From the NCBI RefSeq assembly GCF_000091665.1, contig NC_000909.1:628485-652484 (forward strand): a stretch of 24,000 nucleotides of DNA, given 5' to 3'. Below, in pieces: positions 1 to 19,868 of the stretch. Position 1 is the stretch's first letter, and each line of letters starts with the position of its first letter. Below the pieces are notes generated by a model, which had not been told where the DNA came from, did no database searches, and saw only the letters and a list, made by a program, of their open reading frames with translations. The stretch comes from Methanocaldococcus jannaschii DSM 2661 (GTDB taxonomy: Archaea; AGJL01; Methanococci; Methanococcales; Methanocaldococcaceae). Both the position numbers and the translations under genes were made by a program.

Positions 1-1349
1 CTGAGAGGGCTAAAAGATATGAACACATAACAAAAATAAAAGAGAGTGTAAATAGTAGAATAAAATGGATAGCTAAAGACATCGATGCCGTGATTGAGAT
101 ATATGAAGATTCAGACGTGTCTGGAAAATCCACATGCACTGGAACTATTGAGGACTTCGTTAAATACTTTAGAGACAGATTTGAAAGATTAAAGGTTTTT
201 ATTGAGAGAAAAGCTCAAAGAAAGGGATATCCTCTAAAAGATATAAAGAAAATGAAAGGACAGAAGGATATTTTTGTCGTAGGAATCGTTAGTGATGTTG
301 ATAGTACAAGAAATGGGAACTTGATAGTTAGGATTGAAGACACCGAAGATGAAGCAACGTTAATTCTGCCAAAAGAAAAAATCGAAGCTGGAAAAATACC
401 TGACGATATTTTGTTAGATGAAGTTATTGGAGCTATTGGGACTGTTAGCAAATCTGGAAGTTCAATATACGTTGATGAAATTATACGTCCAGCATTACCA
501 CCAAAAGAACCAAAGAGAATTGATGAAGAGATATATATGGCATTTTTATCTGATATTCACGTTGGAAGTAAGGAGTTTTTGCATAAAGAGTTTGAAAAAT
601 TCATCAGATTTTTAAATGGAGATGTTGATAATGAATTAGAGGAAAAGGTCGTTAGCAGATTAAAATACATCTGCATAGCTGGGGATTTAGTTGATGGGGT
701 TGGTGTCTATCCAGGGCAGGAAGAGGATTTGTATGAGGTAGATATTATTGAGCAGTATAGAGAAATAGCAATGTATTTAGATCAGATTCCAGAGCATATA
801 AGCATAATCATCTCCCCAGGAAACCACGATGCTGTTAGACCAGCAGAACCTCAACCAAAACTGCCAGAGAAAATAACTAAGCTATTTAATAGAGATAACA
901 TCTACTTCGTTGGAAACCCATGCACTCTCAACATCCATGGCTTTGATACTCTATTATATCACGGCAGAAGCTTTGACGACTTAGTTGGACAAATAAGGGC
1001 TGCAAGTTATGAAAATCCAGTAACTATTATGAAGGAGTTGATAAAAAGAAGGCTATTATGTCCAACTTATGGAGGAAGATGTCCTATAGCTCCAGAACAT
1101 AAAGATTACTTGGTTATAGATAGGGATATTGATATTTTACACACTGGGCATATACACATCAACGGTTATGGAATTTATAGAGGAGTTGTTATGGTTAATA
1201 GCGGGACATTCCAAGAGCAAACAGATTTCCAGAAGAGGATGGGTATTAGCCCAACACCTGCAATAGTTCCAATAATAAACATGGCTAAGGTTGGGGAGAA
1301 GGGGCATTATTTAGAATGGGATAGGGGAGTTTTAGAGGTTAGATATTAA
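1..1349 (+). CDS. polB: DNA polymerase II (PolD) small subunit DP1, 5'-truncated by the window edge
   Basis: The frame of ORF 90..1349 stays open back to position 3, so the gene enters from the left. Mre11/calcineurin-like phosphoesterase motifs are present (FLSDIHVGS, AGDLVDG, GNHD, GHIH), typical of archaeal DP1. Confidence 0.9.
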   Translation, partial: ERAKRYEHITKIKESVNSRIKWIAKDIDAVIEIYEDSDVSGKSTCTGTIEDFVKYFRDRFERLKVFIERKAQRKGYPLKDIKKMKGQKDIFVVGIVSDVDSTRNGNLIVRIEDTEDEATLILPKEKIEAGKIPDDILLDEVIGAIGTVSKSGSSIYVDEIIRPALPPKEPKRIDEEIYMAFLSDIHVGSKEFLHKEFEKFIRFLNGDVDNELEEKVVSRLKYICIAGDLVDGVGVYPGQEEDLYEVDIIEQYREIAMYLDQIPEHISIIISPGNHDAVRPAEPQPKLPEKITKLFNRDNIYFVGNPCTLNIHGFDTLLYHGRSFDDLVGQIRAASYENPVTIMKELIKRRLLCPTYGGRCPIAPEHKDYLVIDRDIDILHTGHIHINGYGIYRGVVMVNSGTFQEQTDFQKRMGISPTPAIVPIINMAKVGEKGHYLEWDRGVLEVRY

Positions 1350-1373
1350 TAAATAATAATTTAGAGGGAAACT

Positions 1374-2054
1374 ATGAAAATAATCCCAGTCATTGATTTA
1401 AAAGACAAAATAGCTGTGCATGGAAAGAGTGGAAATAGAGATGAATATAAGCCATTAGAGTCAGTTATCTGCAAATCATCAAATCCTATTGAAGTAGCAA
1501 AAGCCTACAAAGAAAGAGGAGCTAAAACTATCTATATTGCTGACTTAAACTTTATAATGGGCAATGGAGATAATTTTGATATTATAAAAGAGATAGATTT
1601 TATAAACAAGATTGTTGATATTGGAGTAAAGAGTAGAGAGGATTTAGAAACTATCAAAAAAGTTTTAAATAAAGATGATAGGGCAATTGTAGCAACAGAG
1701 ACATTAAAAGATATTGAATTGCTTAAAGAAAAAGATATAGTTGTTAGCTTAGATTTTAAGAATGGGAATCTTTTAAACTACAGCTTGGATGAGATTTTAT
1801 CTTGTGTTAGAGATGATACACCACTAATAATCTTAGATATCTCTTCAGTTGGAACTCAAAGAGGGGTTAATGCAGAGCTTATAAAATATGTTTTAGATAA
1901 AACTAACAATCCGGTGTATGTTGGTGGTGGAATTAAAGGAATGGAAGATTTAGAGCTATGCTATAACTTAGGAGTTGATGCTGTTTTAATAGCAACGGCA
2001 ATACATAAAGGGGTTTTAGATTTAGAGGAGATTATTAATAAGTTTGGTGATTAA
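1374..2054 (+). CDS. HisA/HisF-family (beta/alpha)8-barrel protein
   Basis: 226 aa. N-terminal IIPVIDL strand and C-terminal phosphate-binding GGGI(K)..DL motif as in HisA/HisF. GGAAAC-type RBS region lies before the ATG. Confidence 0.75.
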   Translation: MKIIPVIDLKDKIAVHGKSGNRDEYKPLESVICKSSNPIEVAKAYKERGAKTIYIADLNFIMGNGDNFDIIKEIDFINKIVDIGVKSREDLETIKKVLNKDDRAIVATETLKDIELLKEKDIVVSLDFKNGNLLNYSLDEILSCVRDDTPLIILDISSVGTQRGVNAELIKYVLDKTNNPVYVGGGIKGMEDLELCYNLGVDAVLIATAIHKGVLDLEEIINKFGD

Positions 2055-2191
2055 TAAAGTTCTATCAGTTGATGAATTCAATCTAATGAAAAAATAAACA
2101 CTACTTTTTACAGAAACATATTTAAAAGATGGTGTTATAGTTGGATGAAGTTGAGGTATAGAACTATTTTATTATTTTTTTGGTGGGTAAT

Positions 2192-2488
2192 ATGAATATT
2201 AGAGATAAAATTAAAAGCATTAAAAATTGGATTAACTTTATTAAACCAATAATTACAATCGTTGGTATTGTTATCAGTGCCGTTGCATTTACAATTTCAA
2301 TTTTATGGGGTATGTTATTTTTAATTCTGTTTTTAATATTAATTACTTTTTCTAAAACCATTAGAAAAATATTAAGTAAAAAAGAACGTTCATATCAAGG
2401 TCTTATATTATCAATAATTGGGTCCATAATTATTATATCAATTATCGTATATTCACACTGTTATATAGAGTTTAAGCTATTAATATAA
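2192..2488 (+). CDS. small hypothetical membrane protein (3 predicted TM helices)
   Basis: ORF 2180..2488. The ATG at 2192 follows a GGTGG RBS. Long hydrophobic runs. No recognisable family. Confidence 0.45.
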   Translation: MNIRDKIKSIKNWINFIKPIITIVGIVISAVAFTISILWGMLFLILFLILITFSKTIRKILSKKERSYQGLILSIIGSIIIISIIVYSHCYIEFKLLI

Positions 2489-2583
2489 TTAAAAAAATTA
2501 TTATAACTACAATATTCACATTATTTGTAGGAGATTTTAATAAATGGATATCTATTCTCTTAATTGCTTATGCTTTTCTTTAC

Positions 2584-3717
2584 ATGTTTGCATTTGAAGG
2601 TTTTAAATGGGAAATTGTTGAAATATTTGATTGGAAAGGGCTTAAAAAATTGCAAACAACTTTTCAAAACTATCTTCTCATTCTCTCTATGATTGTGTCT
2701 ATAGCAGTGGTTGTTGCAATAAAAAATTATGATTCATTATGGTCTTTAATAACCAATAGCAGTGACAGCAGTAATTTCCTTACAGTAGGGAGTATTTTAG
2801 CAACTATCTCAGCACTACTTGTATCAATATCTTGGGTTATTATTCAGACATCATCAGATAGATTAAGTAATATCTTAATGTGGATATGGGTTAGAGATGT
2901 AAGATTTTTAACTTTTGTAGTAATTTCTTTCACAACTGTGTTTTTATTTATTCTTATTTCATTAACACATGTTCAATTGCATGTAATTGACTATGGAATT
3001 ATTTATTACGTTATAATGTTAAATTTCTTAATGTATGCTTTATATATAAAAGCATTTGCAAATGTTATAAATCCAAAATATGCAGTCGATTTAATTTTGA
3101 GAGATAAAGATATAGGAGATAAATCAGGAGGCTATGGTGATTTAACTGATGCTGAATCGAGATTATTCGCAGTCTATGAAATTATTGAGAAGAGAATTAA
3201 AGTGGGAGATGTTTATGCAGTAATAAAATGCTTAAATATGATTAACAAAAACTTTAATAAATACTGGATGTTTATTAAAGATGAAAAACGTGAAAAATAT
3301 CTTAGGGATTTTTTAAGAATTCTTAGTAAATTAAGAGTTGAATATAGAAAAAATTGTTTAAATAGGAAAAATAAGCCATACTCTAAAAAAGGTTTGGAAG
3401 CTTTTAAGAAAACAGAATTTATAGTTTCATTTTACAAAACTATCGAAGAAAAAATTAAAACAAGAGACATTAATAGTATTAATAAATTTTTAAGTGAAAC
3501 ATACAACAACATTAGCAATTATGAGATGTTCAACGATAAAACATACCTTGAAATATTTGTGCATCATTTAAAAGAATTATTAGAGAAATATGAAAAAGAA
3601 AAGAATGAGAATAAGTTAGATGAAGAGATATTCAACGAACTAAAAGATGAACTCGAAAAACTAATTAATAAATGCAATAATAAACTAAGAGAACTTGAAT
3701 CACAAAATAACAACTAA
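2584..3717 (+). CDS. hypothetical protein: N-terminal multi-TM domain plus K/E/N-rich helical C-terminal half
   Basis: 377-aa ORF. About 5 hydrophobic helices in the first 170 aa, then a charged, probably coiled-coil region. No family recognised. Confidence 0.6.
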   Translation: MFAFEGFKWEIVEIFDWKGLKKLQTTFQNYLLILSMIVSIAVVVAIKNYDSLWSLITNSSDSSNFLTVGSILATISALLVSISWVIIQTSSDRLSNILMWIWVRDVRFLTFVVISFTTVFLFILISLTHVQLHVIDYGIIYYVIMLNFLMYALYIKAFANVINPKYAVDLILRDKDIGDKSGGYGDLTDAESRLFAVYEIIEKRIKVGDVYAVIKCLNMINKNFNKYWMFIKDEKREKYLRDFLRILSKLRVEYRKNCLNRKNKPYSKKGLEAFKKTEFIVSFYKTIEEKIKTRDINSINKFLSETYNNISNYEMFNDKTYLEIFVHHLKELLEKYEKEKNENKLDEEIFNELKDELEKLINKCNNKLRELESQNNN

Positions 3718-3734
3718 ACTAATCTGGTGATAAA

Positions 3735-4952
3735 ATGGAAAATTATAATGACATCCTTGAAAAAATGTTAAATGGAGAAATAAAGCCATATCAATTAGAT
3801 AAAATGTTTGGTTCAAAAATAGCAACTGAAATTAGAAGAAAATTTATTGAAAAAAAGGTTGGGATTGAATTTAAGCATATATGCAATTACTCAATAGATG
3901 AAGAAATGGCTATGAAGAAGAATATAGAAAATATGATTGGAGCTATACAGATTCCATTGGGTTTTGCTGGGCCTTTAAAGATAAATGGGGAATATGCAAA
4001 GGGAGAGTTTTACATCCCATTGGCAACAACTGAAGGAGCTTTGGTGGCATCGGTTAATAGGGGTTGCTCAATAATAACAAAATGTGGGGGGGCAACTGTT
4101 AGGGTTATAGATGATAAGATGACAAGAGCCCCTTGCTTAAAAACAAAGAGTGTTGTAGATGCAATAAAAGTCAGAGATTGGATTAGAGAAAACTTTGAGA
4201 GGATAAAGGAAGTTGCTGAATCAACAACAAGGCATGGAAAGCTAATAAAGATAGAGCCAATTTTAATCGTTGGAAGAAATCTATATCCAAGATTTGTATT
4301 TAAAACTGGAGATGCCATGGGCATGAATATGGTTACAATTGCAACAGAGAAGGCATGTAATTTTATAGAGGGGGAATTAAAAAAAGAAGGCATATTTGTT
4401 AAAACAGTTGCTGTCAGTGGAAATGCATGTGTAGATAAAAAGCCTAGTGGAATGAACTTAATTAATGGTAGAGGGAAATCTATTGTAGCAGAGGTATTTT
4501 TAACTGAGAAGGAAGTTAATAAATACCTAAAAACCACTTCCCAAGCTATAGCTGAAGTAAATAGGTTAAAGAATTATATAGGTTCAGCAATAAGCAATTC
4601 AATGGGATTCAATGCCCATTATGCAAATATCATTGGGGCAATATTCTTAGCTACTGGGCAAGATGAGGCACATATAGTTGAGGGTAGTTTAGGAATTACA
4701 ATGGCTGAAGTTGAAGATGATGGATTATATTTTTCAGTAACTCTCCCAGATGTTCCTATTGGGACTGTTGGAGGAGGAACAAGGGTTGAAACACAAAAAG
4801 AGTGCTTAGAGATGCTTGGTTGCTACGGAGATAATAAAGCTTTAAAATTTGCTGAAATTGTTGGAGCTGCAGTTTTAGCTGGGGAGTTATCTTTATTAGG
4901 AGCTTTAGCAGCTGGACATTTAGGAAAAGCTCATCAAGAACTCGGTAGATAA
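3735..4952 (+). CDS. hmgA: 3-hydroxy-3-methylglutaryl-CoA reductase (class I)
   Basis: 405 aa with motifs EGALVAS, DAMGMNM and GTVGGGT, plus the C-terminal GHL(G)KAH catalytic His region. GGTGAT RBS precedes the ATG. Confidence 0.95.
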   Translation: MENYNDILEKMLNGEIKPYQLDKMFGSKIATEIRRKFIEKKVGIEFKHICNYSIDEEMAMKKNIENMIGAIQIPLGFAGPLKINGEYAKGEFYIPLATTEGALVASVNRGCSIITKCGGATVRVIDDKMTRAPCLKTKSVVDAIKVRDWIRENFERIKEVAESTTRHGKLIKIEPILIVGRNLYPRFVFKTGDAMGMNMVTIATEKACNFIEGELKKEGIFVKTVAVSGNACVDKKPSGMNLINGRGKSIVAEVFLTEKEVNKYLKTTSQAIAEVNRLKNYIGSAISNSMGFNAHYANIIGAIFLATGQDEAHIVEGSLGITMAEVEDDGLYFSVTLPDVPIGTVGGGTRVETQKECLEMLGCYGDNKALKFAEIVGAAVLAGELSLLGALAAGHLGKAHQELGR

Positions 4953-4954
4953 TT

Positions 4955-5599
4955 ATGAGAGATGCTTATTTAATGATGGTGCTAATGGACGCATTGAAAG
5001 AGATATTTGATTTAAAAGAAATTCTAAAAAGCCCTATAAGAAATAAGAAAGTTATTTTATTTGTTAGTTTGGTTTTTATCTTATCTTTAGTATTATTATA
5101 TATTTTGGTAGTTAATATAAAGTATTTCTCATATTTAGGAGATATCATCTTCCAAAATTTTCAAAAACATGTTGAAAATCTAAAAATTACGTTAAATGAG
5201 GATAACTTACATATAATATTAGCAATTTGGAAAAATAACCTAACCGTATGTATTTTAAACTATATCCTTGGGATTTTTTCACTATTTGTTATTGCAGTTA
5301 ATTCCTATATCTTATCATACGTGCTTTACAAATTTGGTGCTGAAAGCTTTATCTATTTAGTTTTACCACATGGAATCATTGAAATTCCAGCTTTAATACT
5401 TTCAGCATCAGGTGGGGTTTTATTTAACATGGGATTAGTTAATTTCTTAATAAATATCAAATTTGGAACTAAAAGAGAGGTTTTATATTACATAAAAGAG
5501 TCTTTAAAGTTGCTCATACTCTCTATAATACTATTCATAGTTGCTGGAATTGTTGAAGGGACTATAACCTTTAAAATAGCCAAAATCATGTTTTCTTAA
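4955..5599 (+). CDS. SpoIIM/DUF95-family integral membrane protein
   Basis: 214 aa, multi-TM, with the LPHGIIEIPALILSASGG signature typical of the stage II sporulation protein M-like family. Confidence 0.7.
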   Translation: MRDAYLMMVLMDALKEIFDLKEILKSPIRNKKVILFVSLVFILSLVLLYILVVNIKYFSYLGDIIFQNFQKHVENLKITLNEDNLHIILAIWKNNLTVCILNYILGIFSLFVIAVNSYILSYVLYKFGAESFIYLVLPHGIIEIPALILSASGGVLFNMGLVNFLINIKFGTKREVLYYIKESLKLLILSIILFIVAGIVEGTITFKIAKIMFS

Positions 5600-5643
5600 T
5601 TGAGTTTTAAGATATAAAAAAGAATAAACAAAAAGTAGCTCGC

Positions 5644-5787
5644 TTATCCTCTTGGTTCTTTTGCTTTTGGTCTTAAACCTTTGTATCCACACTTTCTACA
5701 CTTTGTAGCTCTCCAAGGGTTTCTTGCATTACATCTCATACAAATCTTTTTCATAAATAACCTTTTCATTGCTTCTTCAAATGGCAT
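5644..5787 (-). CDS. rpl40e: 50S ribosomal protein L40e (zinc ribbon)
   Basis: Not in the ORF track (47 aa). Reverse-strand translation: [47 protein letters not shown]. CxxC...CxxC ribbon. AGGTGAG RBS (5791-5797) upstream. Confidence 0.9.
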
Positions 5788-5936
5788 TCTCTCACCTACA
5801 GATTTTTAATAAACATATTAAAACTTTTTAAAACTTTTTATATGTTTTTATGTTTTTTGACAGATTTAAATTTTAGTTATATATTTTACTTTTGGAACTT
5901 TAGATGCCCTTTAGGCAGCAATAATCAATAGAATAT

Positions 5937-6446
5937 TTATTTCCTGAGAAAGTCCTGCTGAATTTCCACAACTTCCATTGAATTTTTAGCATTTGAGTAT
6001 CTTTCTAATAATTCATAATTAACCTTTATAAATGTTTCTGCCCATTTAAAACAGGAGGTTAAATCCCAAGCTTCATCCTTAAAGTTAGTTATATATAAAG
6101 CGGCAATAAAAGCTTCCAATGTTGAAAGCATGCATGGCTTTCCATAATTTATAGGGTTGCATGCAACTAAAAACGGTAGAGACCTTTGATTTTTAAATTT
6201 AAATTTCTTAAACATTAACTCCGCTTCTTTCCATGAACAATCTAAAGCAGTTATTCCAAACTTTTCCACTATCTCTTTATCTTCTGGAGATAGAGCTTTT
6301 TCAGCGTAAGGATTCAGTATTAAAGAGTTTTTTGGAACTTTATAAGGATTTTTTAACAAAATGGCTTTATTCATCTTAGCCATTTTTAAGGATGTGCATT
6401 TTTTTGGATTGCACTGATTTGCATGATATATGAAAAGCTTCGGCAT
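5937..6446 (-). CDS. tsr3: 16S rRNA aminocarboxypropyltransferase Tsr3 (DUF367)
   Basis: The ORF 5937..6455 start is a GTG. The ATG at 6446 (MPKLFIYH...) follows a GTGA RBS. N-terminal CNPKKCT RLI-type motif and LDCSW motif are characteristic of Tsr3. Confidence 0.85.
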   Translation of the reverse strand: MPKLFIYHANQCNPKKCTSLKMAKMNKAILLKNPYKVPKNSLILNPYAEKALSPEDKEIVEKFGITALDCSWKEAELMFKKFKFKNQRSLPFLVACNPINYGKPCMLSTLEAFIAALYITNFKDEAWDLTSCFKWAETFIKVNYELLERYSNAKNSMEVVEIQQDFLRK

Positions 6447-6530
6447 TGTTATCACAATTTTGTGAAATGGTAAAGAAAATTAAGTTGTATAAGTAGTATT
6501 TATTTTTTACTGTTATTGTGGTGATAGACG

Positions 6531-7883
6531 ATGAAAAATGTTGAAATATTGTTGGATGACCCAAAAAAAGCAGTAATTGAAGTATCAAAGCCAATAATTG
6601 TTGCTACATTCATTGAATCAATCTATAGCTTAGTTGATAGTATCTGGGTTTCTGGATTGGGGGCAGATGCATTAGCTGCTGTGGGAGCGAGTTTTCCAAT
6701 ATTAATTAGCATATATGCAGTTAGTTGGGGTTTGAGTATTGGGATTAGCTCTGGAATAGCAAGAAGAGTTGGAGCAAAAAATAAAGAAGAAGCTGATAAA
6801 GTAGCAAATCATGCAATTATTTTAGCTTTAATTGCTGGAATTTTGTATATTATAGCTGTATATCCAAATCTTGATACGCTATTTAGCTTAATGGGAACCT
6901 ATGGAGATTGTAAGTCATTAGCTATAAAATACTCCAGCATACTGGTTTTAGGAACTGTTATATTTACAATCTGCGATGCGTTATATGGGATATTTAGGGG
7001 GGAGGGAAATACAAAGATAGTTATGATAGCAAGCGTTATAGGCACTTTAACAAACATCATCTTAGACCCGATATTCATCTATATGCTAAATTTAGGGATA
7101 AGTGGGGCAAGTTATGCTACTTTGATAGCTATAATTATATCTCTCTTAATTTTAGCTTATGAGCTGTTTATAAAAAAATCATGTTATGTTACAGTTAAAT
7201 TATCAAAATTTAAACCTGATTTAAAGATTATAGCCGATTTAATTAGAGTTGGAATTCCTTCAGCATTGATAGAGATTACTGTTGCAGTATCATTTTTTAT
7301 AATGACTTCAATAATTATGATGGTTGGAGATAGTAGAGGTTTAGCTGTCTATACTGGAGCTTTAAGAATAACAGAGTTTGGCTTTATTCCAATGTTAGGT
7401 TTGGCAAGTGGAGCTACTTCAGTTATAGGAGCCACTTACGGAGCAAGGAGTTTTGAAAAATTAAAAACAGCTTATTTTTACACAATAAAAATTGGGGTTT
7501 TAATGGAAATTATTATAGTTGCTTTAATAATGCTCTTATCCCCAATCTTAGCTTATCTATTTACTTACACAAAAACCTCAATGGGAATTCATGAAGAACT
7601 TGTTAAAGCTTTAAGAATAGTTCCATTATATTTACTATTTACACCATTTATTTTAACAACATCCGCAATGTTCCAAGGAATTGGTAAAGGAGAAAAATCA
7701 TTAATAATTTCCATATTTAGGTCGCTAATATGTCATATATCCTATGCTTATCTATTTGCAGTAATATTGGGATTAGGAATGTTTGGAATATATAGCGGCT
7801 TAGTGGTTGGAGAATTTACAGCTGGAATTTTTGCATTTCTATTTGGAGTTTTAGCTATAAAAGCATTAATAAAATCTAAATAA
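6531..7883 (+). CDS. MATE-family efflux transporter
   Basis: 450 aa, about 12 TM helices with duplicated 6-TM architecture. GGTGAT RBS before the ATG. Confidence 0.85.
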
Positions 7884-7909
7884 AATTAAAAATATTTTGA
7901 GGGGTAATT

Positions 7910-8965
7910 ATGATTGGATATGTTTTAAATGGAGAGCATGAAGAAATCCCTTATGGAGAACTTATGGCATTATTAGAAATTTTTAATTACAATGGAAGTG
8001 TTGAGAGATTAAAAAGATACGTTATAACTGAAGATAGTCCTGCCAAAGATATCGTTAAAAGAAGTGGGTATATAGATGAGGGGCATAGGATAATATTTAG
8101 ATACAATTTAGAAGAAAAAAGTGTAGATTTAGTAGATAAAATTGTCAATGATTTTATAAACTCATTTAAAGATTTTGTAGCAAATATTGATTATCCAGAT
8201 ATTGATGAGAGTAAATCTTATGCCGTTAGAGTTTTAAAACTTCATAAAGATGAATTTACAAAATCTATAGACTCATTAAGAATTGAGAAGGAAATTGGAG
8301 GGATTATAAAATTAAAAACCAATGCAAAAGTAAATTTAACAAAACCAGATATATTAGTTAGAGTTGTTATTTTAGAAAACACATTTTTTATTTCCAATGT
8401 ATTAGAGATGAGAGATAGGGAATACTTCCAAAAGAATAGGCCACATTTAAGAAAATACTTCCATCCGGGTTGTATGCTTCCAAAACTTGCAAGAGCTATG
8501 GTAAATCTAGCAAGAGTTAAAGAAGGAGATATTGTCTTAGACCCATTCTGTGGGACTGGAGGGTTTTTAATTGAGGCTGGTTTAATCGGAGCTAAGCTTA
8601 TTGGTTGTGATATAGATTGGAGAATGGCTTCTGGAACTTTAATCAACCTTGAAGAATACAACCTATTAGATAAAGTGATAAAAGTTAAAAGATTAGATGC
8701 CAAATACGTAAAAGAGTTTTTAAATGAACTAAATATAGAAAAAGTCGATGCCATTGTAACAGACCCGCCTTATGGAATATCTACAGCAAAAAAGGGAGAG
8801 ATTGAAAAGATATTAGAAACTCTTCCAGAGGTCATTAAAGATAACGGCTACTTTGTTTTTGCATACCCAAAAAAGATAGAGCTTGATATGGAATTAGAGG
8901 GACTCTACAAGGTATATATCCATAAAGGGCTGATTAGACACATCCATGTTTATAAGAAAATCTAA
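7910..8965 (+). CDS. THUMP-domain tRNA (guanine-N2)-methyltransferase (Trm-G10/Trm11 family)
   Basis: 351 aa. N-terminal THUMP-like region, then SAM motif I VLDPFCGTGGFLIEA and catalytic DPPYG. Confidence 0.85.
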   Translation: MIGYVLNGEHEEIPYGELMALLEIFNYNGSVERLKRYVITEDSPAKDIVKRSGYIDEGHRIIFRYNLEEKSVDLVDKIVNDFINSFKDFVANIDYPDIDESKSYAVRVLKLHKDEFTKSIDSLRIEKEIGGIIKLKTNAKVNLTKPDILVRVVILENTFFISNVLEMRDREYFQKNRPHLRKYFHPGCMLPKLARAMVNLARVKEGDIVLDPFCGTGGFLIEAGLIGAKLIGCDIDWRMASGTLINLEEYNLLDKVIKVKRLDAKYVKEFLNELNIEKVDAIVTDPPYGISTAKKGEIEKILETLPEVIKDNGYFVFAYPKKIELDMELEGLYKVYIHKGLIRHIHVYKKI

Positions 8966-9053
8966 TATTATTACATTTACTAAAAATATTTATGAAAATT
9001 TATGAAAAATTAATTAAATTGTAAGTCAAATATTTAAATACCTAACCGAAAAG

Positions 9054-9061
9054 TTTATATA
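9054..9061 (+). promoter_or_regulatory. TATA box (TTTATATA) with purine-rich BRE-like CGAAAAG upstream; candidate promoter of the tRNA cluster
   Basis: Matches the consensus methanogen box A. tRNA-Phe begins 38 nt downstream of the box, so a short leader is expected. Confidence 0.6.
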
Positions 9062-9098
9062 CCTGAAATGTAATGCATAATTATGCAAACATTTGGGT

Positions 9099-9175
9099 GC
9101 CGCGGTAGTTCAGCCTGGGAGAACGCTGGACTGAAGATCCAGTTGTCGGGTGTTCAAATCACCCCCGCGGCACCA
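9099..9175 (+). tRNA. tRNA-Phe (GAA), CCA encoded
   Basis: Acceptor GCCGCGG/CCGCGGC. Anticodon stem CTGGA/TCCAG with loop CTGAAGA. T-arm GGGTG-TTCAAAT-CACCC. Confidence 0.95.
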
Positions 9176-9182
9176 TTGATGT

Positions 9183-9258
9183 GCCCCCATAGCTCAGATG
9201 GTAGAGCGACGGACTGTTAATCCGTAGGTCGCAGGTTCGAGTCCTGCTGGGGGCGCCA
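9183..9258 (+). tRNA. tRNA-Asn (GTT), CCA encoded
   Basis: Acceptor GCCCCCA/TGGGGGC. Anticodon loop CTGTTAA. T-loop GGTTCGAGTCC. Confidence 0.95.
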
Positions 9259-9287
9259 TTAATTTTTTATTTTTTTATACCCAATAT

Positions 9288-9365
9288 GGGCCCGTAGCTC
9301 AGCCTGGTCAGAGCGCTCGGCTCATAACCGAGTGGTCAAGGGTTCAAATCCCTTCGGGCCCACCA
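9288..9365 (+). tRNA. tRNA with CAT anticodon (elongator Met or Ile2), CCA encoded
   Basis: Acceptor GGGCCCG/CGGGCCC (G1:C72, so not an initiator). Anticodon loop CTCATAA. Met and agmatidine-modified Ile2 cannot be told apart by eye. Confidence 0.9.
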
Positions 9366-9383
9366 TATTAAAATCACTAATTA

Positions 9384-9458
9384 GCTCCGGTGGTGTAGTC
9401 CGGCCAATCATGCGGGCCTTTCGAGCCCGCGACCCGGGTTCAAATCCCGGCCGGAGCA
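9384..9458 (+). tRNA. tRNA-Glu (TTC), no encoded CCA
   Basis: Acceptor GCTCCGG/CCGGAGC. Anticodon stem CGGGC/GCCCG with loop CTTTCGA. Confidence 0.93.
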
Positions 9459-9497
9459 TCATTCGTCCTATTTTAAGATAATTAAGAATATATATGT

Positions 9498-9585
9498 GCA
9501 GGGGTCGCCAAGCCTGGCCAAAGGCGCTGGGCCTAGGACCCAGTCCCGTAGGGGTTCCAGGGTTCAAATCCCTGCCCCTGCACCA
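9498..9585 (+). tRNA. tRNA-Leu (TAG), long variable arm, CCA encoded
   Basis: Acceptor GCAGGGG/CCCCTGC. Anticodon loop CCTAGGA. 88 nt with a class II variable arm. Confidence 0.93.
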
Positions 9586-9595
9586 TAGGTAAAGT

Positions 9596-9668
9596 GGCCG
9601 GGGTGGGGTAGTGGCCATCCTGGGGGACTGTGGATCCCCTGACCCGGGTTCAATTCCCGGTCCCGGCC
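9596..9668 (+). tRNA. tRNA-His (GTG) with encoded G-1
   Basis: Extra 5' G before acceptor GCCGGGG. Anticodon stem GGGGA/TCCCC with loop CTGTGGA. Discriminator C. Confidence 0.9.
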
Positions 9669-9669
9669 C

Positions 9670-9684
9670 TTTTTTATTTTTTTT
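9670..9684 (+). terminator. oligo-T tract (TTTTTTATTTTTTTT) after tRNA-His
   Basis: Archaeal intrinsic terminators are oligo-T runs. This one starts 2 nt after the tRNA. Confidence 0.6.
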
Positions 9685-9738
9685 CAACCTTAATTGTTCT
9701 ATTCCTAAAAACGTTGCATGTAACAACCTCCTGTTATT

Positions 9739-9859
9739 GGATGCACTTGAAATAGGGCTTACGCGGGTAAGTTTCCTATTGGAATAAATGATGCCCTTTA
9801 GGGCTTCAAAATTCCAAATTCAATAAAATAATGCGTAAGCCCTATTTAAGGATGCGTCC
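9739..9859 (+). repeat. nested-hairpin repeat element, copy 2 (upstream of the 16S leader)
   Basis: Perfect 15-bp inverted repeat AAATAGGGCTTACGC (9750-9764) / GCGTAAGCCCTATTT (9833-9847), imperfectly extendable to 9739/9859. 68-nt AT-rich loop with inner hairpin GATGCCC-TTTA-GGGCTTC. Shares TGATGCCCTTT and AAATTCCA anchors with copy 4. Confidence 0.7.
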
Positions 9860-9879
9860 CCAATCCGAAGGGTTGGGGC

Positions 9880-9923
9880 TGAGGCAAGCCCACGACTGGT
9901 GGTGAAACCCCGCAGCAACCAGC
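9880..9923 (+). other. 16S processing stem, 5' strand
   Basis: Complementary to 11458-11500 as 20-bp and 16-bp helices separated by an internal loop. This is the expected site of a bulge-helix-bulge endonuclease substrate. Confidence 0.85.
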
Positions 9924-9967
9924 CGCAAGAAAGGTTTATCCTTTCTTGCGACCGTACCTCCCACTTA

Positions 9968-11446
<1,479 letters not shown>

Positions 11447-11457
11447 GAGAAAAAAGC

Positions 11458-11500
11458 GCTGGTTGCTGCGGGGCACCAAACCAGTCGTGGGCTTGCCTCA
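11458..11500 (+). other. 16S processing stem, 3' strand
   Basis: Reverse complement of 9880-9923 apart from the central internal loop. Confidence 0.85.
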
Positions 11501-11510
11501 TAGGGAAAGT

Positions 11511-11583
11511 GGGCCCGTAGCTCAGCTGGGAGAGCGCCGGCCTTGCAAGCCGGAGGCCGTGGGTTCAAATCCCACCGGGTCCA
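11511..11583 (+). tRNA. tRNA-Ala (TGC) in the 16S-23S spacer, no encoded CCA
   Basis: Acceptor GGGCCCG/CGGGTCC gives the G3:U70 alanine identity pair. Anticodon loop CTTGCAA. Confidence 0.95.
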
Positions 11584-11632
11584 CTATATATGCAGCCTGC
11601 AACTCCAAAGAGTTGCAGGTGAAGGGCCTGAT

Positions 11633-11724
11633 ACGGGACTTTCGCAGGAAATAATTTTTATTTGGTAATTGATGCTTTCAGCATCTCACTACCTTATAAA
11701 TATTACAAACTGCGAAAGTCCCGT
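11633..11724 (+). repeat. nested-hairpin repeat element, copy 3 (between tRNA-Ala and the 23S processing stem)
   Basis: Perfect 15-bp inverted repeat ACGGGACTTTCGCAG (11633-11647) / CTGCGAAAGTCCCGT (11710-11724). 62-nt AT-rich loop with a T-run (11655-11663), inner hairpin GATGC-TTTCA-GCATC (11671-11685) and TATA-like TTATAAATATT (11694-11704). Confidence 0.75.
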
Positions 11725-11734
11725 AAAAACATGA

Positions 11735-11759
11735 GGGCCATGCATAGGCTTCCACATCC
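11735..11759 (+). other. 23S processing stem, 5' strand
   Basis: Perfect 25-nt complement of 14798-14822. Confidence 0.85.
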
Positions 11760-11770
11760 CGGTGAAATCT

Positions 11771-14786
<3,016 letters not shown>

Positions 14787-14797
14787 AGACACTAAGC

Positions 14798-14822
14798 GGA
14801 TGTGGAAGCCTATGCATGGCCC
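14798..14822 (+). other. 23S processing stem, 3' strand
   Basis: Perfect reverse complement of 11735-11759. Confidence 0.85.
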
Positions 14823-14846
14823 AAAAAAAGGCACCATTTATTTCTT

Positions 14847-14965
14847 GGTACGGCGGTCATAGCGGGGGGGCCACACCCGAACCCATCCCGAACTCGGAAG
14901 TTAAGCCCCCCAGCGATGCCCCGAGTACTGCCATCTGGCGGGAAAGGGGCGACACCGCCGGCCAC
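14847..14965 (+). rRNA. rrf: 5S rRNA
   Basis: GGTACGGCGGTCATAGCGGGGGGGCCACACCCGAACCCATCCCGAACTCGGAAGTTAAGCCC... with terminal helix to ...ACCGCCGGCCAC. About 119 nt. Ends approximate. Confidence 0.92.
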
Positions 14966-14979
14966 TTTTTATTATTTTA
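14966..14979 (+). terminator. oligo-T tract (TTTTTATTATTTT) after 5S
   Basis: T-rich run directly after the 5S terminal helix. Confidence 0.6.
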
Positions 14980-14989
14980 GAAAATAACA

Positions 14990-14997
14990 TTTATATA
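14990..14997 (+). promoter_or_regulatory. TATA box TTTATATA; candidate dedicated promoter of RNase P RNA
   Basis: The box lies about 19-26 nt upstream of the P1 5' end at 15016, the canonical archaeal TATA-to-start spacing. Confidence 0.65.
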
Positions 14998-15015
14998 TTC
15001 AAATCTTAAAGTTAA

Positions 15016-15281
15016 GCGGGTAAGGGGGCTGGTGACTTTCCCCTCTTTAAGAGGGGAGGAAGTTCCGCCCACCCCATTTATGGGCAGCGTCCCCTGAGAA
15101 GGGGCGGGAGATGCAGCAGAAACGACACGGCTCCGGAAGAGATGACGATGATAGTGAAAGTTGAGGACTTCCGGAGAACCGGTGAAACGGGCATCTCCCC
15201 TGCCCGGGGTGCAAGCCGGTTTCGGCGCTTAGCCGAATGTCACCGAAATTACAGAAGGCGGGCTATAGCCCCCATACCCGC
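15016..15281 (+). ncRNA. rnpB: RNase P RNA (archaeal, Methanococcales-like reduced type)
   Basis: P1 pairs GCGGGTAAGGGGG (15016-15028) with CCCCCATACCCGC (15269-15281). CR-I-like GAGGAAGTTCCGCC and CR-V-like ACAGAAGGCGGGCTATA form P4. GC-rich island in AT-rich DNA. Followed by T6 at 15286-15291. Confidence 0.9.
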
Positions 15282-15285
15282 ACTA

Positions 15286-15291
15286 TTTTTT
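15286..15291 (+). terminator. oligo-T tract after RNase P RNA
   Basis: TTTTTT lies 5 nt after the P1 3' strand. Confidence 0.5.
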
Positions 15292-15293
15292 AT

Positions 15294-15383
15294 AGAATTT
15301 TCGCAGTTTTATATTAACTTCGTGGAATTTAGATGCTCAAAGGGCATCAATTTTCTCTAAAATTTTATTCCTGCAAAAGTTCT
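15294..15383 (-). repeat. nested-hairpin repeat element, copy 4 (inverted orientation, downstream of RNase P RNA)
   Basis: 13-bp outer stem AGAATTTTCGCAG (15294-15306) / CTGCAAAAGTTCT (15371-15383) with 1 mismatch and 1 wobble. 64-nt loop. Its reverse complement aligns with copy 3 (TTGATGC..TTT.AGCATCT, flanking GCAG|GAATAA and AAA|CTGCGAAA) and with copy 2 (TGATGCCCTTT, AAATTCCA). Confidence 0.7.
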
Positions 15384-15509: not shown

Positions 15510-16478
15510 ATGGATAGTGTTCTAAGTGGTAAGATTGTTCAAATACTTGTGGGGTATTTAAAAGAAAATATCTATTCTGAACAAATGATAAAACTTAGGA
15601 TGAAGAGAATTTGTAGCTATGAGGAGTTTTTACCAACATACTCTTTAATAGAAAGGATTACTGAAGAAAGTAAAGAGATAGCAATAAAAGTATATGAAAA
15701 GAACATTATCGTAGAGATTGTTAAAGATTTTAAAAATAAGGATTTAATAGAACTATTTGAACTTAAAGAAGAGCTATTTGATGAAGCTTTAAGCTATTTA
15801 AAAAAATATAATGCAGATAAATTCTTAGAGAGCTACACTTTATACTGCTTTAGTGAGTATTCAGACCCTGACTCATTTATCAAGGAAAATAAGAGTATAT
15901 TAACAAAACTTCTTAGAAATCAGTATGAAGAAGTTCCAGAGGAATATATAAATGAATTATTAAAAAGCAAAATAAAGTATTCAACAAAAGATTTAATAAT
16001 TTTGGATTGGGATAATGGAATAATCTTAGATAAAAATGAAGATTTCTGGGAAGAAGTTGATATTATCGAACTTGCCTGTATTAGAGTTTTGAATTTAAGA
16101 GTATTTGACAGTATGCTAAGTGAAGCAATACAATATTTCACAAGATTACAGTGGGAAAAACTTGGATATTTTAAGCTAAAAAAACTATCTAAGGATTTAT
16201 ATCTACAAAGAATCAGCTATATATCATATTTTGATAGCATTGAAAATGTCCTTATGTTGTATGGAGACAGATATTATGCTGAGTTGTATGAAAGATTATG
16301 TAAAATATTCTACGTCTCAGAATGGATTAAAAGAGTAGAGAAAAAAATGGAAATGATTAGTGATATATACACAATGACAAGGCAACATTTAACTGAGTTT
16401 TATGGATTATTGTTGGAAGGAACAATTGTTGCTTTAATACTATTGGAGATAATTTTAGCTTTAGCAAAGATTGTTTAA
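15510..16478 (+). CDS. hypothetical protein, probably RMD1/DUF155 family, with a single C-terminal TM helix
   Basis: 322 aa. The C-terminal pattern (helical region, then [22 protein letters not shown]) and overall layout resemble DUF155. Family assignment is from memory of the profile only. Confidence 0.5.
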
Positions 16479-17482
16479 ATAACTCCTGTTTCTTCAGCCA
16501 GTTTCCTTGCCTCTTCTCTACTTAACCCATCTCTTAATATAGTCCATCTATTTCTTATTTTATGAGCCATAGTTAATGCCTCAATAATGATATCTTCATC
16601 AAATCCAAGTTCTTTGGCAGTTGTTGGAGCATCAACCTTTTTTAAACTCATTTTAATCTTTTCATGTAATCCAGATAACTTTTTATTCTCTTTCTCATGT
16701 AGATAGCTCATCATTATTGTTCCTATTCCACACTGTTCTCCATGTAAGGAATTTATATTTAAGTTATACTCCTCTTTTAACTTATCCAAAGCATGAGAGA
16801 AGAGATGCTCACTTCCGGAGGCGGGTCTTGAAGAATTTGCTATAGCTATCGCTATACCACTCCCAACTAATGCTTTTACAAGTTTATTATGATACTCTGA
16901 CAAATCTGAATTTAAAACATAACTTATTAATTCTTTAGCTATTGTTTTTGAAAATATAGCAGAGCTCTCACTGTATTTTTCCCCTTTCTCTTTATAAGCC
17001 AATTTCCAATCTAAAACAGCTGTTATATTTGAAACAATATCCCCCATTCCTGCACTTAACAATCTCCTTGGAGATTTTTTTATTATCTCTGTATCAGCAA
17101 TTATGGCTATTGGGGCATCAACCATAAATGAGGGTTGTCTTATAGAAACAATTGGTGAGGCAATGCCATCATTTGACGCAGTTGTGGGCACACTAATAAA
17201 TGGAATACCTAATTTATAAGCTAAATATTTACCAGTATCTATTGATCTTCCTCCTCCAATACCAATTACACAATCATAGGCAGTATATTTTTTAAGTTCA
17301 ATTTCAAGATTGTTTAAAATTTCATCATAATATACAATATCATAGAAAAATCTACAGTATTTTTTTGTATTTTTTCCGGTAATCACTAATGGATTTTTTA
17401 AGTTGAGTTTTTTCAAAATTTCCTCTATTTTATTAATTGCTCCATCTTCTATAATTGTATATCTTGGTGTGACTATAATCAT
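16475..17482 (-). CDS. egsA: sn-glycerol-1-phosphate dehydrogenase
   Basis: 335 aa. [12 protein letters not shown] nucleotide-binding loop, [14 protein letters not shown], and His-rich metal site ([19 protein letters not shown]) of the G1PDH/DHQS-like superfamily. Confidence 0.92.
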
Positions 17483-17534
17483 CCTACCCCTCTTTTAAAA
17501 TATAAGCTATTCCTTGTCCAAAACTAATCCCGCC

Positions 17535-17597
17535 CCATAGGGCTCTGCCTATTGGGATACCCGTTATCCATTAAGTTGGGGCTTTCAGCCCCAATTA
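17535..17597 (+). repeat. GC-rich structured insert abutting the hypF stop codon (possible degenerate copy 5 of the hairpin element)
   Basis: Hairpins CCATAGG-GCTCTG-CCTATTGG (17535-17555) and TTGGGGC-TTTCA-GCCCCAA (17576-17594). The latter shares the loop and TAA.TTG..GCTTTCAGC..C context of the copy 3 inner hairpin. ATAGGGCT and CCTATTGG also occur in copy 2. Confidence 0.4.
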
Positions 17598-19868
17598 ATA
17601 TCCATTTTTTAAGATATAGGCAACACCTTGCCCAAAACTAATTCCCCCATCTCCATTAGGAACTCTTTGATGATAAATAAAATTAAAACCCTCCCTTTTT
17701 GCATTATTCATAATTCTTTCAGTTATTATTTTGTTATATGAGACTCCTCCAGTAATGCCTATAGTATTTATTCCAAATTTATTCGATATTTTCTTAGCAA
17801 TCTCAAATAATCCATCTGCTATATAAATATGGGCAAAATGTGCTATTTTTTCTTTATTTTCGTTATTTAATAGCATCTCATAAGATTTGTAAATAAGTTC
17901 TGTAGTATTTAAGATGTTATTTTTTATTTTTGGCTCTATATTAATATCTCCTTTAAACCTATTTGCCACTGGCTCTAATCTTATACTCGGCTCTCCATCG
18001 TAAGTTTTTTCAAAGCAAATTCCTAATAAAGCTGAAACAGCATCTAAAACTCTACCAGTGGATGTAGTTATTGGACAGTTAAGTTTTTTCTCAAGTTGGA
18101 ATTTTAATAATCTAAGTTCTTTTTCTGAGAAGAAATTATATCTTTTTATAAAATCAAATGCCTCCTCACCAATGGCTTTATATAATATAGAAAGTAGCAT
18201 CCTCAAAGGATACTTAGTTGCTAAGTCCCCTCCTAACTGATACTGTTCCTCCAAATGCCCTACTCTCTCCATCTTGCCATCTTTAAATAACAAAACCTCC
18301 CCTCCCCAAATATTCCCATCCAATCCATAACCTACCCCATCCAACGACAAAATTATTGCATCATCGAAATAGTTGTTGTCCCCTAATAAGCTATAAGCAT
18401 GTGCAAAATGATGCTGAACTCTAAAAATCTCAGCCCCAAATTTTTCTGATAATTCCTCAGCTAATTTTGTTGAATTAAACTGAGGATGCAAGTCACAAAC
18501 AATAGCATCAATTTTATTTGTGTTTGTTAATCTTAAAATGTTGTTTATCGCATCTCTTAGATAGCAGAATGTCTCATACTTTGAGGTATTTCCTATATAC
18601 TGGGTTAGATAAAACTTATCTCTCTTTACAATACAAGCGGTTGAGTTTAGCTCAGCCCCAACACATAGGATATTTTTATTATTGTTTATATTAACCTTTA
18701 CAGGCTCTGGAGCAAATCCCCTTGACCTCCTTAAAAAAACTAATCTATCAGCTACCTTTTTAACAACACTGTCATCACATCTATTCACTATCCTTCTATT
18801 ATGCAATAAGAAGTAGTCAGCAATACCGTTAAGTTTTTTTAATATCTCATCATTATCCTTAACCATTGGTAATCCTGGCAGATTAGCAGAGGTCATAACA
18901 TAAGCAATCTCTTTATCAAATAAGAGATAATGCAACCCACTGTATGGAAACATAACTCCAATAGTGTCTAAATTAGAAACATACTTTGAAAAATATTTAT
19001 CATAATCTTGGCTCTTTTTTAAAACAACTATTGGTCTTCTTAAAGATAACAAAGCATTTTTTTCATCTTCGTCAAATTCAGCAAACAGCTCTGTATATTC
19101 TATTTTACTCATTACTGCAAATGGTTGAGTTGGTCTTCCCAATCTCTTCCTTAATTCTAAAACTACATCATCCTCTCCTACTTTACAAGCTAAGTGAGTC
19201 CCTCCAATTCCTTTTATAGCTAATATATGACCCTCTTCCAATAATTTAACTGTTTCTCTAATTGCTTCATCTTTTTCAGCTATAATCTCTTTTCCATCAC
19301 TCAAAAATACCTTAGGACCGCAAATTGGGCAACAAGTGGCTTGAGCATGAAATCTCCTATCTAAAGGATTTTTATATTCCTCCAAGCACTTTTCACATAA
19401 AGGAAAATCTCTCATTGATGTATTTTCTCTATCATAGGGAAGTTTTTCAACTATTGTAAATCTCGGCCCACAATTTGTGCATGCAATAAATGGGTATCTG
19501 TATCTCCTATCATTTTTATCAAGCATTTCTTTTAAGCAGTCGTCACATATTGCTACATCAGCTGGTATAGTGCCTTCTTCCTCATCTTTAGCGTTTTCAC
19601 TCTTTATAATATAGAAGTCATCAAATTCTTCAATTCCTTTAATTTCCTCAATATCCAATTTATCAATTCTTGACAATGGCGGTTTCTTATTTTTTAAATC
19701 ATTGATAAAATTTCTTATATCCTCTTTTTTTCCTTCAATAAGAATTTCCACATAATTCCCCATGTTTTTTACATAGCCCTTTAAATTATTTTTTTTAGCT
19801 ATTCTATAAACAAAAGGTCTAAACCCTACACCTTGAACTATACCTTTAACTTTAATTCTTACCTTCAT
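17595..19868 (-). CDS. hypF: [NiFe]-hydrogenase maturation carbamoyltransferase HypF
   Basis: Acylphosphatase domain (VKGIVQGVGFRPFVYRIA), two CxxC-x18-CxxC zinc fingers (CDDC..CTNCGPRF, CEKC..CPICGP), and YrdC-like and Kae1-like domains. Start probably MKVRIKV at 19868 rather than 19895. Confidence 0.93.
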   Translation of the reverse strand: MKVRIKVKGIVQGVGFRPFVYRIAKKNNLKGYVKNMGNYVEILIEGKKEDIRNFINDLKNKKPPLSRIDKLDIEEIKGIEEFDDFYIIKSENAKDEEEGTIPADVAICDDCLKEMLDKNDRRYRYPFIACTNCGPRFTIVEKLPYDRENTSMRDFPLCEKCLEEYKNPLDRRFHAQATCCPICGPKVFLSDGKEIIAEKDEAIRETVKLLEEGHILAIKGIGGTHLACKVGEDDVVLELRKRLGRPTQPFAVMSKIEYTELFAEFDEDEKNALLSLRRPIVVLKKSQDYDKYFSKYVSNLDTIGVMFPYSGLHYLLFDKEIAYVMTSANLPGLPMVKDNDEILKKLNGIADYFLLHNRRIVNRCDDSVVKKVADRLVFLRRSRGFAPEPVKVNINNNKNILCVGAELNSTACIVKRDKFYLTQYIGNTSKYETFCYLRDAINNILRLTNTNKIDAIVCDLHPQFNSTKLAEELSEKFGAEIFRVQHHFAHAYSLLGDNNYFDDAIILSLDGVGYGLDGNIWGGEVLLFKDGKMERVGHLEEQYQLGGDLATKYPLRMLLSILYKAIGEEAFDFIKRYNFFSEKELRLLKFQLEKKLNCPITTSTGRVLDAVSALLGICFEKTYDGEPSIRLEPVANRFKGDINIEPKIKNNILNTTELIYKSYEMLLNNENKEKIAHFAHIYIADGLFEIAKKISNKFGINTIGITGGVSYNKIITERIMNNAKREGFNFIYHQRVPNGDGGISFGQGVAYILKNGY

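Follow-up and report, generated by a model that had tools for sequence, protein, structure and literature searches.

The end of hypF, the gene for the carbamoyltransferase HypF, is present twice in the 24,000-nt stretch of the Methanocaldococcus jannaschii DSM 2661 chromosome that we analysed (the window): once as the live 42-nt end of the gene (copy A) and once as a displaced copy (copy B) just upstream of the neighbouring gene, a homologue of egsA, with 72 nt of hairpin-forming sequence between the two. We found that this insert belongs to a multi-copy repeat family, that junctions with a single 42-nt copy and no insert exist in relatives, that the same insertion is shared by other lineages, that duplications of the flanking sequence accompany copies of the element across the family, and that the differences between duplicated copies fall mainly on third codon positions. 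How might a displaced gene fragment have kept the look of a coding sequence? We consider it fairly probable that the element inserted with a long target duplication and that recombination with live copies has since kept the displaced copy under indirect selection. What is noteworthy in an already known repeat family is this combination of long, variable target duplications with a displaced copy that stays coding-like.

Read on the minus strand, hypF runs through CCT AAT GGA GAT into copy A (17648-17607, GGGGGAATTAGTTTTGGGCAAGGTGTTGCCTATATCTTAAAA), whose codons are GGG GGA ATT AGT TTT GGG CAA GGT GTT GCC TAT ATC TTA AAA. Directly 3′ of it stand AAT GGA TAT TAA, then TTGGGGCTGAAAGCCCCAA CTTAATGGATAACGGGTATCCCAATAGGCAGAGCCCTATGG, and then copy B (17534-17493, GGCGGGATTAGTTTTGGACAAGGAATAGCTTATATTTTAAAA), with the codons GGC GGG ATT AGT TTT GGA CAA GGA ATA GCT TAT ATT TTA AAA, which is followed directly by GAG GGG TAG G ATG, the ATG being the start of egsA. 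The 42 nt encode the conserved HypF motif ...GDGGISFGQG... The two copies are identical at 34 of 42 bases and differ at the third position of codons 1, 2, 6, 8, 9, 10 and 12 and at the first position of codon 9, where valine and isoleucine alternate; our recomputed alignment agrees in this with an earlier reading made from the letters alone (the sequence-only reading), which had counted seven third-position changes and one first-position I/V change. As a pair of flank repeats the copies reach an alignment score of 26, the 99th percentile of random scores in the M. jannaschii genome being 17. The tandem arrangement is real and is no artefact of assembly, because independent metagenome assemblies of other lineages show the same arrangement.

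Family membership and flanking duplications

Searched with the 156-nt region made up of the two copies and the insert, the M. jannaschii genome gives 41 matches, and all of them except the self-match lie on the 72-nt insert. A 41-nt core, AATGGACATTAATTGGGGCTGAAAGCCCCAACTTAATGGAC, is present 23 times in that genome, and dozens more copies of the element are spread across the 16 sister genomes that we searched. The search of the genome for further copies that the sequence-only reading had proposed therefore yields more than 20 in M. jannaschii and more in its sisters, and the second of that reading's suggestions, the insertion of a hairpin element, was essentially right. The family matches run from the AAT after ...TTAAAA to ...CTATGG, so that the 72 nt correspond to one element exactly and the last three codons of HypF and its stop (NGY*) come from it. 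The element has no open reading frame (ORF) and consists of 72 non-coding nt; neither of its ends, AATGGAC... and ...CCTATGG, is the inverted form of the other, so that it has no terminal inverted repeats.

Folding of the 72 nt gives a long GC-rich hairpin that takes in the hypF stop codon (TAA, 17595-17597, inside the 5′ arm of hairpin 1), then a small stem of 5 bp and another GC-rich hairpin, in agreement with the GC-rich hairpins that had been noted between the copies beforehand. Folded as DNA, the element has a z-score of -3.5, and only 0-1 of 200 shuffled sequences fold equally well; the fold of the whole 181-nt region is unremarkable (z=-0.55), and the element itself is all that stands out. 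Across 19 family copies hairpin 1 is 100% paired, with compensatory changes at 6 of its 11 pairs, which 0 of 500 shuffles matched, and this full pairing together with the compensatory changes indicates that the hairpin itself is maintained, as DNA or as RNA. The hairpin 2 module also occurs solo at many sites, both in M. jannaschii and in sister genomes. We considered a structured RNA gene and rejected it, given that Rfam covariance models run against positions 17000-18100 returned no relevant match at E<=10 and that the 181-nt region folds unremarkably.

Many other copies of the element are likewise directly flanked by direct repeats, each specific to its locus. Among the core copies with a definable end, 11 of 17 have a flank repeat score of >=16 (random 95th percentile 12, 99th percentile 17); the right repeat begins within 0-4 nt of where the element stops, and the left repeat begins about 40 nt upstream (range 26-70). 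A screen of GC islands that was blind to family membership, with a threshold of >=18, found such repeats at 39 of 95 repeat-family islands (41%), whereas random sites reached it in 1.15% of cases and non-repeat islands in 19 of 1795. The repeats are 42 nt long at hypF and about 20-70 nt elsewhere, and at some copies they form perfect pairs, of 35 nt and 21 nt; perfect long repeats of this kind speak for the two copies being identical at birth. Since every family copy has its own locus-specific repeat, the repeat is a target duplication and no att site borne by the element. On these figures, the hypF duplicate is the usual long target-type duplication of the family and no special scar. The att logic of an integrative element, to which the sequence-only reading had likened the junction, finds no support here: only 72 nt lie between the repeats, they include no integrase or other element genes, and the repeat differs at every family copy.

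Two side observations concern the flanks of other copies. The strongest other example of a duplicated gene end lies outside the window, at G000:C1:33325-33374 and 33441-33490, where one gene end is present twice, as KEIEHRKELGLPIPY* and as ...V.Y*, with differences at 13 of 50 nt (3/0/10 at first, second and third codon positions), and the displaced copy has kept its stop codon. Element cores were also seen to adjoin CRISPR repeats, at L053 (G012:C147), L054 (G012:C183) and L050 (G011:C119), as in GTTAAAATCAGACCTCTTTGAGG-TTAAAA-CTTGGACGTTAATTGGGGC... and ...CCCCTATGG-AAATCAGACC...; hairpin elements are thus found within or at the ends of CRISPR arrays too. The apparent flank repeats there are the CRISPR repeats themselves, for which reason the G011:C119 copy was excluded and CRISPR repeats were left out of the family counts.

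Empty and filled junctions in relatives

We read the hypF-egsA junction in the sister genomes and scanned metagenomes with the HypF C-terminus as the query. Empty sites, with one 42-nt copy, were found in G001, G013, G014, G006, G011 and G005/G009, in more distant species, and in the metagenome contigs L065/L066 and L067, that is, in at least nine sister genomes and contigs. At these sites a short tail, (K/R)EG* or a variant, comes after the single 42 nt, and the egsA ATG stands immediately behind it, with about 1-4 nt between stop and start. Because single-copy relatives have the same tail before egsA, it is copy B that stands in the ancestral junction context, as the sequence-only reading had surmised for the downstream copy; its suggested comparison of the junction across relatives reveals a single-copy state, so that the tandem arrangement is not common to all of them. 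The G-rich run in the ancestral tail probably lies where the ribosome-binding site of egsA is to be expected.

Filled sites with the same two boundaries occur in at least two uncultured lineages, here called M1 (four contigs from different samples, L059-L061 and L064) and M2 (L062, OFDI01001341.1), and a further contig, L063, ends inside the element. The element at hypF measures 72 nt in M. jannaschii (MJ), 73 nt in M1 and 173 nt in M2, where an extra module is nested in it. The element copies at hypF share a linker motif, ACGGG, that other family copies lack, and the B copies of MJ, M1 and M2 all have GGC at codon 1; these shared features point to a single origin of the insertion. The insertion is old, being common to other uncultured lineages and missing from most named species. 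In a tree built from the final 1.3 kb of hypF, M1, M2 and L063 form a clade to which the empty G006 is sister, with 100/100 support, and MJ falls outside. The insertion-bearing lineages are therefore not monophyletic, and the insertion must either have been lost precisely several times or have moved between lineages by recombination.

Several observations on individual junctions may be recorded here. In M1 the stem of hairpin 1 is swapped, TTGCCCCTAAAAGGGGCAA replacing TTGGGGCTGAAAGCCCCAA, which amounts to four compensatory pair changes at one orthologous site and may reflect either selection on the hairpin or overwriting from another family copy. In M2 the nested module measures about 100 nt, has perfect inverted ends of 16 nt (TAACCAATTATCAAAG...CTTTGATAATTGGTTA) and lies between hairpin 1 and the second AATGGAC; the same composite, a nested module in a hairpin element, is present at four M. 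jannaschii sites (C1:143707, 453111, 726182 and 1248652), and it thus seems that the hairpin element is itself the target of a classical inverted-repeat element. On the M2 contig, egsA has an in-frame stop and a frameshift. At the junction of G002 (L042, G002:C1) only the 20-nt hairpin 2 module, AATAGGGCGGAGCCCTATGG, identical to that of M1, is found at the same left boundary after ...TTAAAG, followed by TT AGA GAG GGA TAA; the flank repeat there is about 5-6 nt, and the two sides are of different allele types (K vs R). This module may have inserted alone and independently at a hot spot, or it may be what a deletion left of the same old insertion. In G012 the draft assembly is interrupted exactly at the junction (L045/L046): contig C35 ends ...ATATCTTAAAA and contig C69 begins TTAGTTTTGGG...TTAAAAGAGGGG, with an identical 35-nt overlap. 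A filled site whose repeats are nearly perfect would be expected to have this effect, as would a mixed population; neither a contig with the element junction nor a second 42-nt copy was found.

Divergence of the displaced copy

Copy B is not translated, as two in-frame TAA codons precede it in the MJ element and the lengths of the M1 and M2 elements, which are not multiples of three, put it out of frame; read-through of the element was rejected on the same grounds. Even so, the A-B differences number 1/0/7 at first, second and third codon positions in MJ, 0/0/6 in M1 and 0/0/5 in M2, so that third positions account for 18 of 19 differences over three lineages. Compared among themselves, the three B copies differ at 1/0/9 positions (P=3.6e-4 if all positions were equally free), and no B copy has an indel or a stop codon. 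The same holds for the family: over 30 ungapped flank-repeat pairs with one copy within a gene (about 315 sites per codon position), the differences are 25/10/70, a third-position share of 67% and a second-position share of 10%. Were the live copy to change only silently and the displaced copy neutrally, we estimate that these shares would be about 45% and 27%, and plain decay is therefore rejected. The claim of the sequence-only reading that the duplicate is no recent slippage product decaying neutrally is borne out by this third-position excess in three lineages and family-wide, and so is its view that both copies have the signature of coding evolution. Its addition that they evolved so before being juxtaposed is one possible reading only; the evidence accords no less well with recombination that went on after juxtaposition.

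The states at individual sites suggest that such recombination has occurred. At codon 3, both MJ copies have ATT, as does G001, and both copies of M1 and of M2 have ATA, as does G006; these states match those of the neighbours of each lineage, and copy B thus follows its own lineage. Two markers next to the element have stayed linked to it: GGC at codon 1 is present in all B copies and GCC at codon 10 in all A copies, and neither occurs in any single-copy allele. At the other variable sites, every state can be found in some live allele of another species. Such a pattern would be expected were linkage to the element to weaken with distance from it, both repeats continuing to exchange with live copies. 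Efficient gene conversion has been documented in polyploid methanogenic archaea (PMC8223754, citing Hildenbrand et al. 2011).

We propose the following course of events. A small non-coding Methanocaldococcus hairpin repeat, most likely an MJRE element, would have inserted 9 nt before the hypF stop codon and duplicated 42 nt of the target on its left, by a staggered break or a template switch with fill-in, so that the order became hypF with copy A at its end, the element, copy B, GAGGGGTAG and egsA. The first bases of the element would then have given HypF its new tail NGY*, and egsA would have retained its old upstream sequence. Copy B may have stayed in recombinational exchange with live copies, namely the neighbouring A and the single-copy alleles of element-free lineages, an exchange that would include excision and re-acquisition of the element through the repeats. 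By any route that carries B sequence into a live copy, in a large population, B would be exposed to selection on HypF, such that variants harmful to HypF would be removed and silent allelic variants imported.

Several points weigh against this account. MJ, M1 and M2 share ancestry, so that their counts are not fully independent; 42 nt hold little phylogenetic signal, and the case for recombination is indirect; conversion between A and B is not separable from exchange with single-copy alleles; and sliding windows of 300 nt over the hypF-egsA region, compared with 11 sister sequences, revealed no sharp identity breakpoint at the junction. As to the insertion itself, the hairpin element lacks the terminal inverted repeats mentioned above, and the search of transposase and reverse transcriptase families identified neither an enzyme nor a pathway that could make target duplications of 20-70 nt: the M. 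jannaschii genome has no match to the Y1 transposase PF01797, for which control genomes were positive, and none to the reverse transcriptase PF00078, and its only two DDE_Tnp_1 genes have no visible link to the element.

Of the alternatives, a one-step import fares best, although we regard it as unlikely. A foreign hypF end carrying the element would have recombined into the resident hypF by a homologous join on the left and an illegitimate one on the right, just upstream of the resident last 42 nt; A would then be foreign, B the displaced resident end, and the copies would have differed as alleles from the start. Such an import would explain why the A-B differences are allele-like (at most variable sites, live alleles of other species show the one state as well as the other), and it agrees with the lack of monophyly of the insertion-bearing lineages and with the same pattern elsewhere, as at C1:33325/33441. 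Illegitimate joins, however, would not produce at many unrelated loci the exact geometry of a target duplication, in which A ends at the first base of the element and B starts at its last, nor do they accord with the perfect flank repeats of 21-35 nt at other copies. The private GGC at codon 1 means that the B copies of three lineages are not independently displaced ends, and hypF has no identity breakpoint near the junction. Finally, there is no microhomology between the 3′ end of the element and the sequence upstream of the left repeat (mean score 3.73 observed, 3.87 permuted), a result that counts against the import and at the same time reveals no template-switch signature.

Plain decay in place, with A under selection, B neutral and the third-position excess at hypF due to chance, is very improbable. 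For the eight MJ differences alone its chance probability, estimated from site counts, is about 0.02, which is not overwhelming for one locus, but the 18 of 19 third-position differences over three lineages, the 1/0/9 pattern among the B copies, the mere 10 of 105 family-wide differences at second positions and the freedom of all B copies from indels and stop codons stand against it. Scarcely credible to us is direct selection on copy B, in which programmed DNA excision, RNA processing or translational bypass would remove the element and part of the population would express B or the old KEG* tail. In its favour, all three lineages have an intact B, compensatory changes maintain the hairpins, and bypass of GC-rich hairpin inserts is known from T4 gene 60 and from the mitochondria of Magnusiomyces. 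But a bypass, or an excision through the repeats, would lay open no more than a part of B or the tail, and not the full 14 codons; in M1 and M2 the hypF frame does not continue into B, and in MJ two in-frame stops stand before it; and the same silent-site pattern recurs at the duplicated starts and ends of many unrelated genes, which a general recombination effect fits better than dozens of special expression devices.

Taking insertion in which a long piece of target was duplicated, followed by recombination, as our preferred explanation, we tentatively suggest a wider one, about which we are more doubtful. Hairpin repeats may insert by an undescribed, transposase-independent route in which 20-70 nt of target are copied; the gene end so duplicated may then serve as a homology arm for precise loss, regain and passage between diverged lineages by ordinary recombination, and the untranslated fragment would become a "shadow" coding sequence, under indirect purifying selection through gene conversion only.

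The features of the junction are collected in Table 1. The two flanking genes were identified by profile search: HypF matches TIGR00143 with 1162 bits over residues 14-760 of 766, and the best match of the EgsA ORF is the NAD(P)-dependent glycerol-1-phosphate dehydrogenase NF002022, at 344.6 bits, which does not reach the curated cut-off of 413. Elsewhere in the window, downstream of egsA, a stretch at about 1-15,300 shows 94-100% identity over several kb when Methanocaldococcus species are compared, protein genes being 80-90% identical; it is presumably a ribosomal RNA operon.

Table 1. Features at the hypF-egsA junction, in window positions
Feature	Positions	Strand	Basis
hypF, carbamoyltransferase HypF, 766 aa	17595..19895	-	ORF list; TIGR00143
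Copy A, live 42-nt hypF end, reads GGISFGQGVAYILK, left flank repeat	17607..17648	-	
72-nt hairpin repeat element, AATGGATATTAATTGGGGCTGAAAGCCCCAACTTAATGGATAACGGGTATCCCAATAGGCAGAGCCCTATGG	17535..17606	-	multi-copy family, probably MJRE
Hairpin 1, TTAATTGGGGC-TGAAA-GCCCCAACTTAA	17571..17598	-	fold; compensatory changes in family
Hairpin 2, CCAATAGGCAGAGCCCTATGG	17535..17555	-	fold; solo matches
Copy B, displaced, untranslated 42-nt copy, right flank repeat	17493..17534	-	
Ancestral hypF tail GAG GGG TAG, now outside the hypF reading frame	17484..17492	-	single-copy relatives
egsA homologue, glycerol-1-phosphate dehydrogenase, intact	16475..17482	-	ORF list; NF002022

Relation to known repeats and insertions

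The insert is probably an MJRE palindromic repeat, an assignment made by description and not by sequence. In M. jannaschii, MJRE1-3 have been described as palindromic repetitive elements (Suyama, Lathe & Bork, FEBS Lett 2005, as cited in PMC2229807), and, as far as the account given there extends, they resemble the insert in length (about 70-75 nt), in being palindromic, hairpin-forming and multi-copy in the same organism, and in their location, which is mostly intergenic and sometimes within a coding sequence to which they are fused. The element at hypF, like these coding-fused members, supplies coding sequence (NGY*). To our knowledge, neither long target duplications nor coding-like displaced gene ends have been reported in the description of MJRE.

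The geometry of the duplication has a parallel in bacteria, where restriction-modification gene units show "insertion with long target duplication" of 46-423 bp, by a mechanism that is unknown (PMC2853133; Furuta et al. 2010; also Nobusato et al. 2000); no archaeal case passed that screen. Those units, too, lack a transposase or integrase, have long, variable direct target duplications and often lie at gene 3′ ends, and in both systems the repeats align with a single copy in an insert-free relative; the duplication at hypF, of 42 bp (>30 bp), likewise comes without a mobility gene. The bacterial cases, however, are kilobase gene units, whereas here a 72-nt multi-copy hairpin repeat is accompanied by duplications of about 20-70 nt, and the resemblance is in geometry only.

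Insertion sequences of the IS1634/IS1549 type have long, variable direct repeats that exceed the usual 2-14 bp target duplication. They are autonomous, with a DDE transposase and inverted ends; the hairpin element has neither, and no IS1634-like transposase is linked to it. Insertion sequences with long duplications are alluded to in PMC2853133 as "the transposon of Mycoplasma". Miniature inverted-repeat transposable elements (MITEs), REP/BIME sequences and Rickettsia palindromic elements (RPEs) are likewise small, structured, non-autonomous prokaryotic repeats, and RPEs also enter coding sequence. A classical MITE was rejected as an identity for the insert, since MITEs have inverted ends and short duplications of fixed length and the hairpin element has no such features. 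The REP system was set aside as well, as it depends on a Y1 (RAYT) transposase and makes no duplication, and the M. jannaschii genome contains no match to this IS200/IS605-like family (PF01797); so was a retro-inserted small RNA of the SINE type, there being no reverse transcriptase PF00078 in the genome. In Escherichia coli K-12, the prophage e14 carries a replacement 3′ end of icd as its attP and integrates by a site-specific integrase. As at hypF, the gene 3′ end is found twice around the inserted DNA, with mainly silent differences, and the gene stays intact; in e14, however, the repeat is carried by the element, whereas around the hairpin element it is specific to the locus of each of dozens of copies and nothing is encoded between the repeats.

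For annotation, these results mean that the C-terminal NGY* of HypF is element-derived and that the second 42-nt copy is no gene. The hypF locus adds to the family the same insertion in three diverged lineages, through which the evolution of the displaced copy itself can be measured directly, and with its filled and empty states and its strongly conserved protein motif it is a clean case for study. If the proposed explanation is true, a whole family of small archaeal repeats would move in a manner unlike known prokaryotic transposition, and an untranslated DNA copy could go on evolving like a gene, which would bear on the detection of pseudogenes, on the dating of insertions by repeat divergence, and on estimates of recombination among the Methanocaldococcus lineages of hydrothermal vents.

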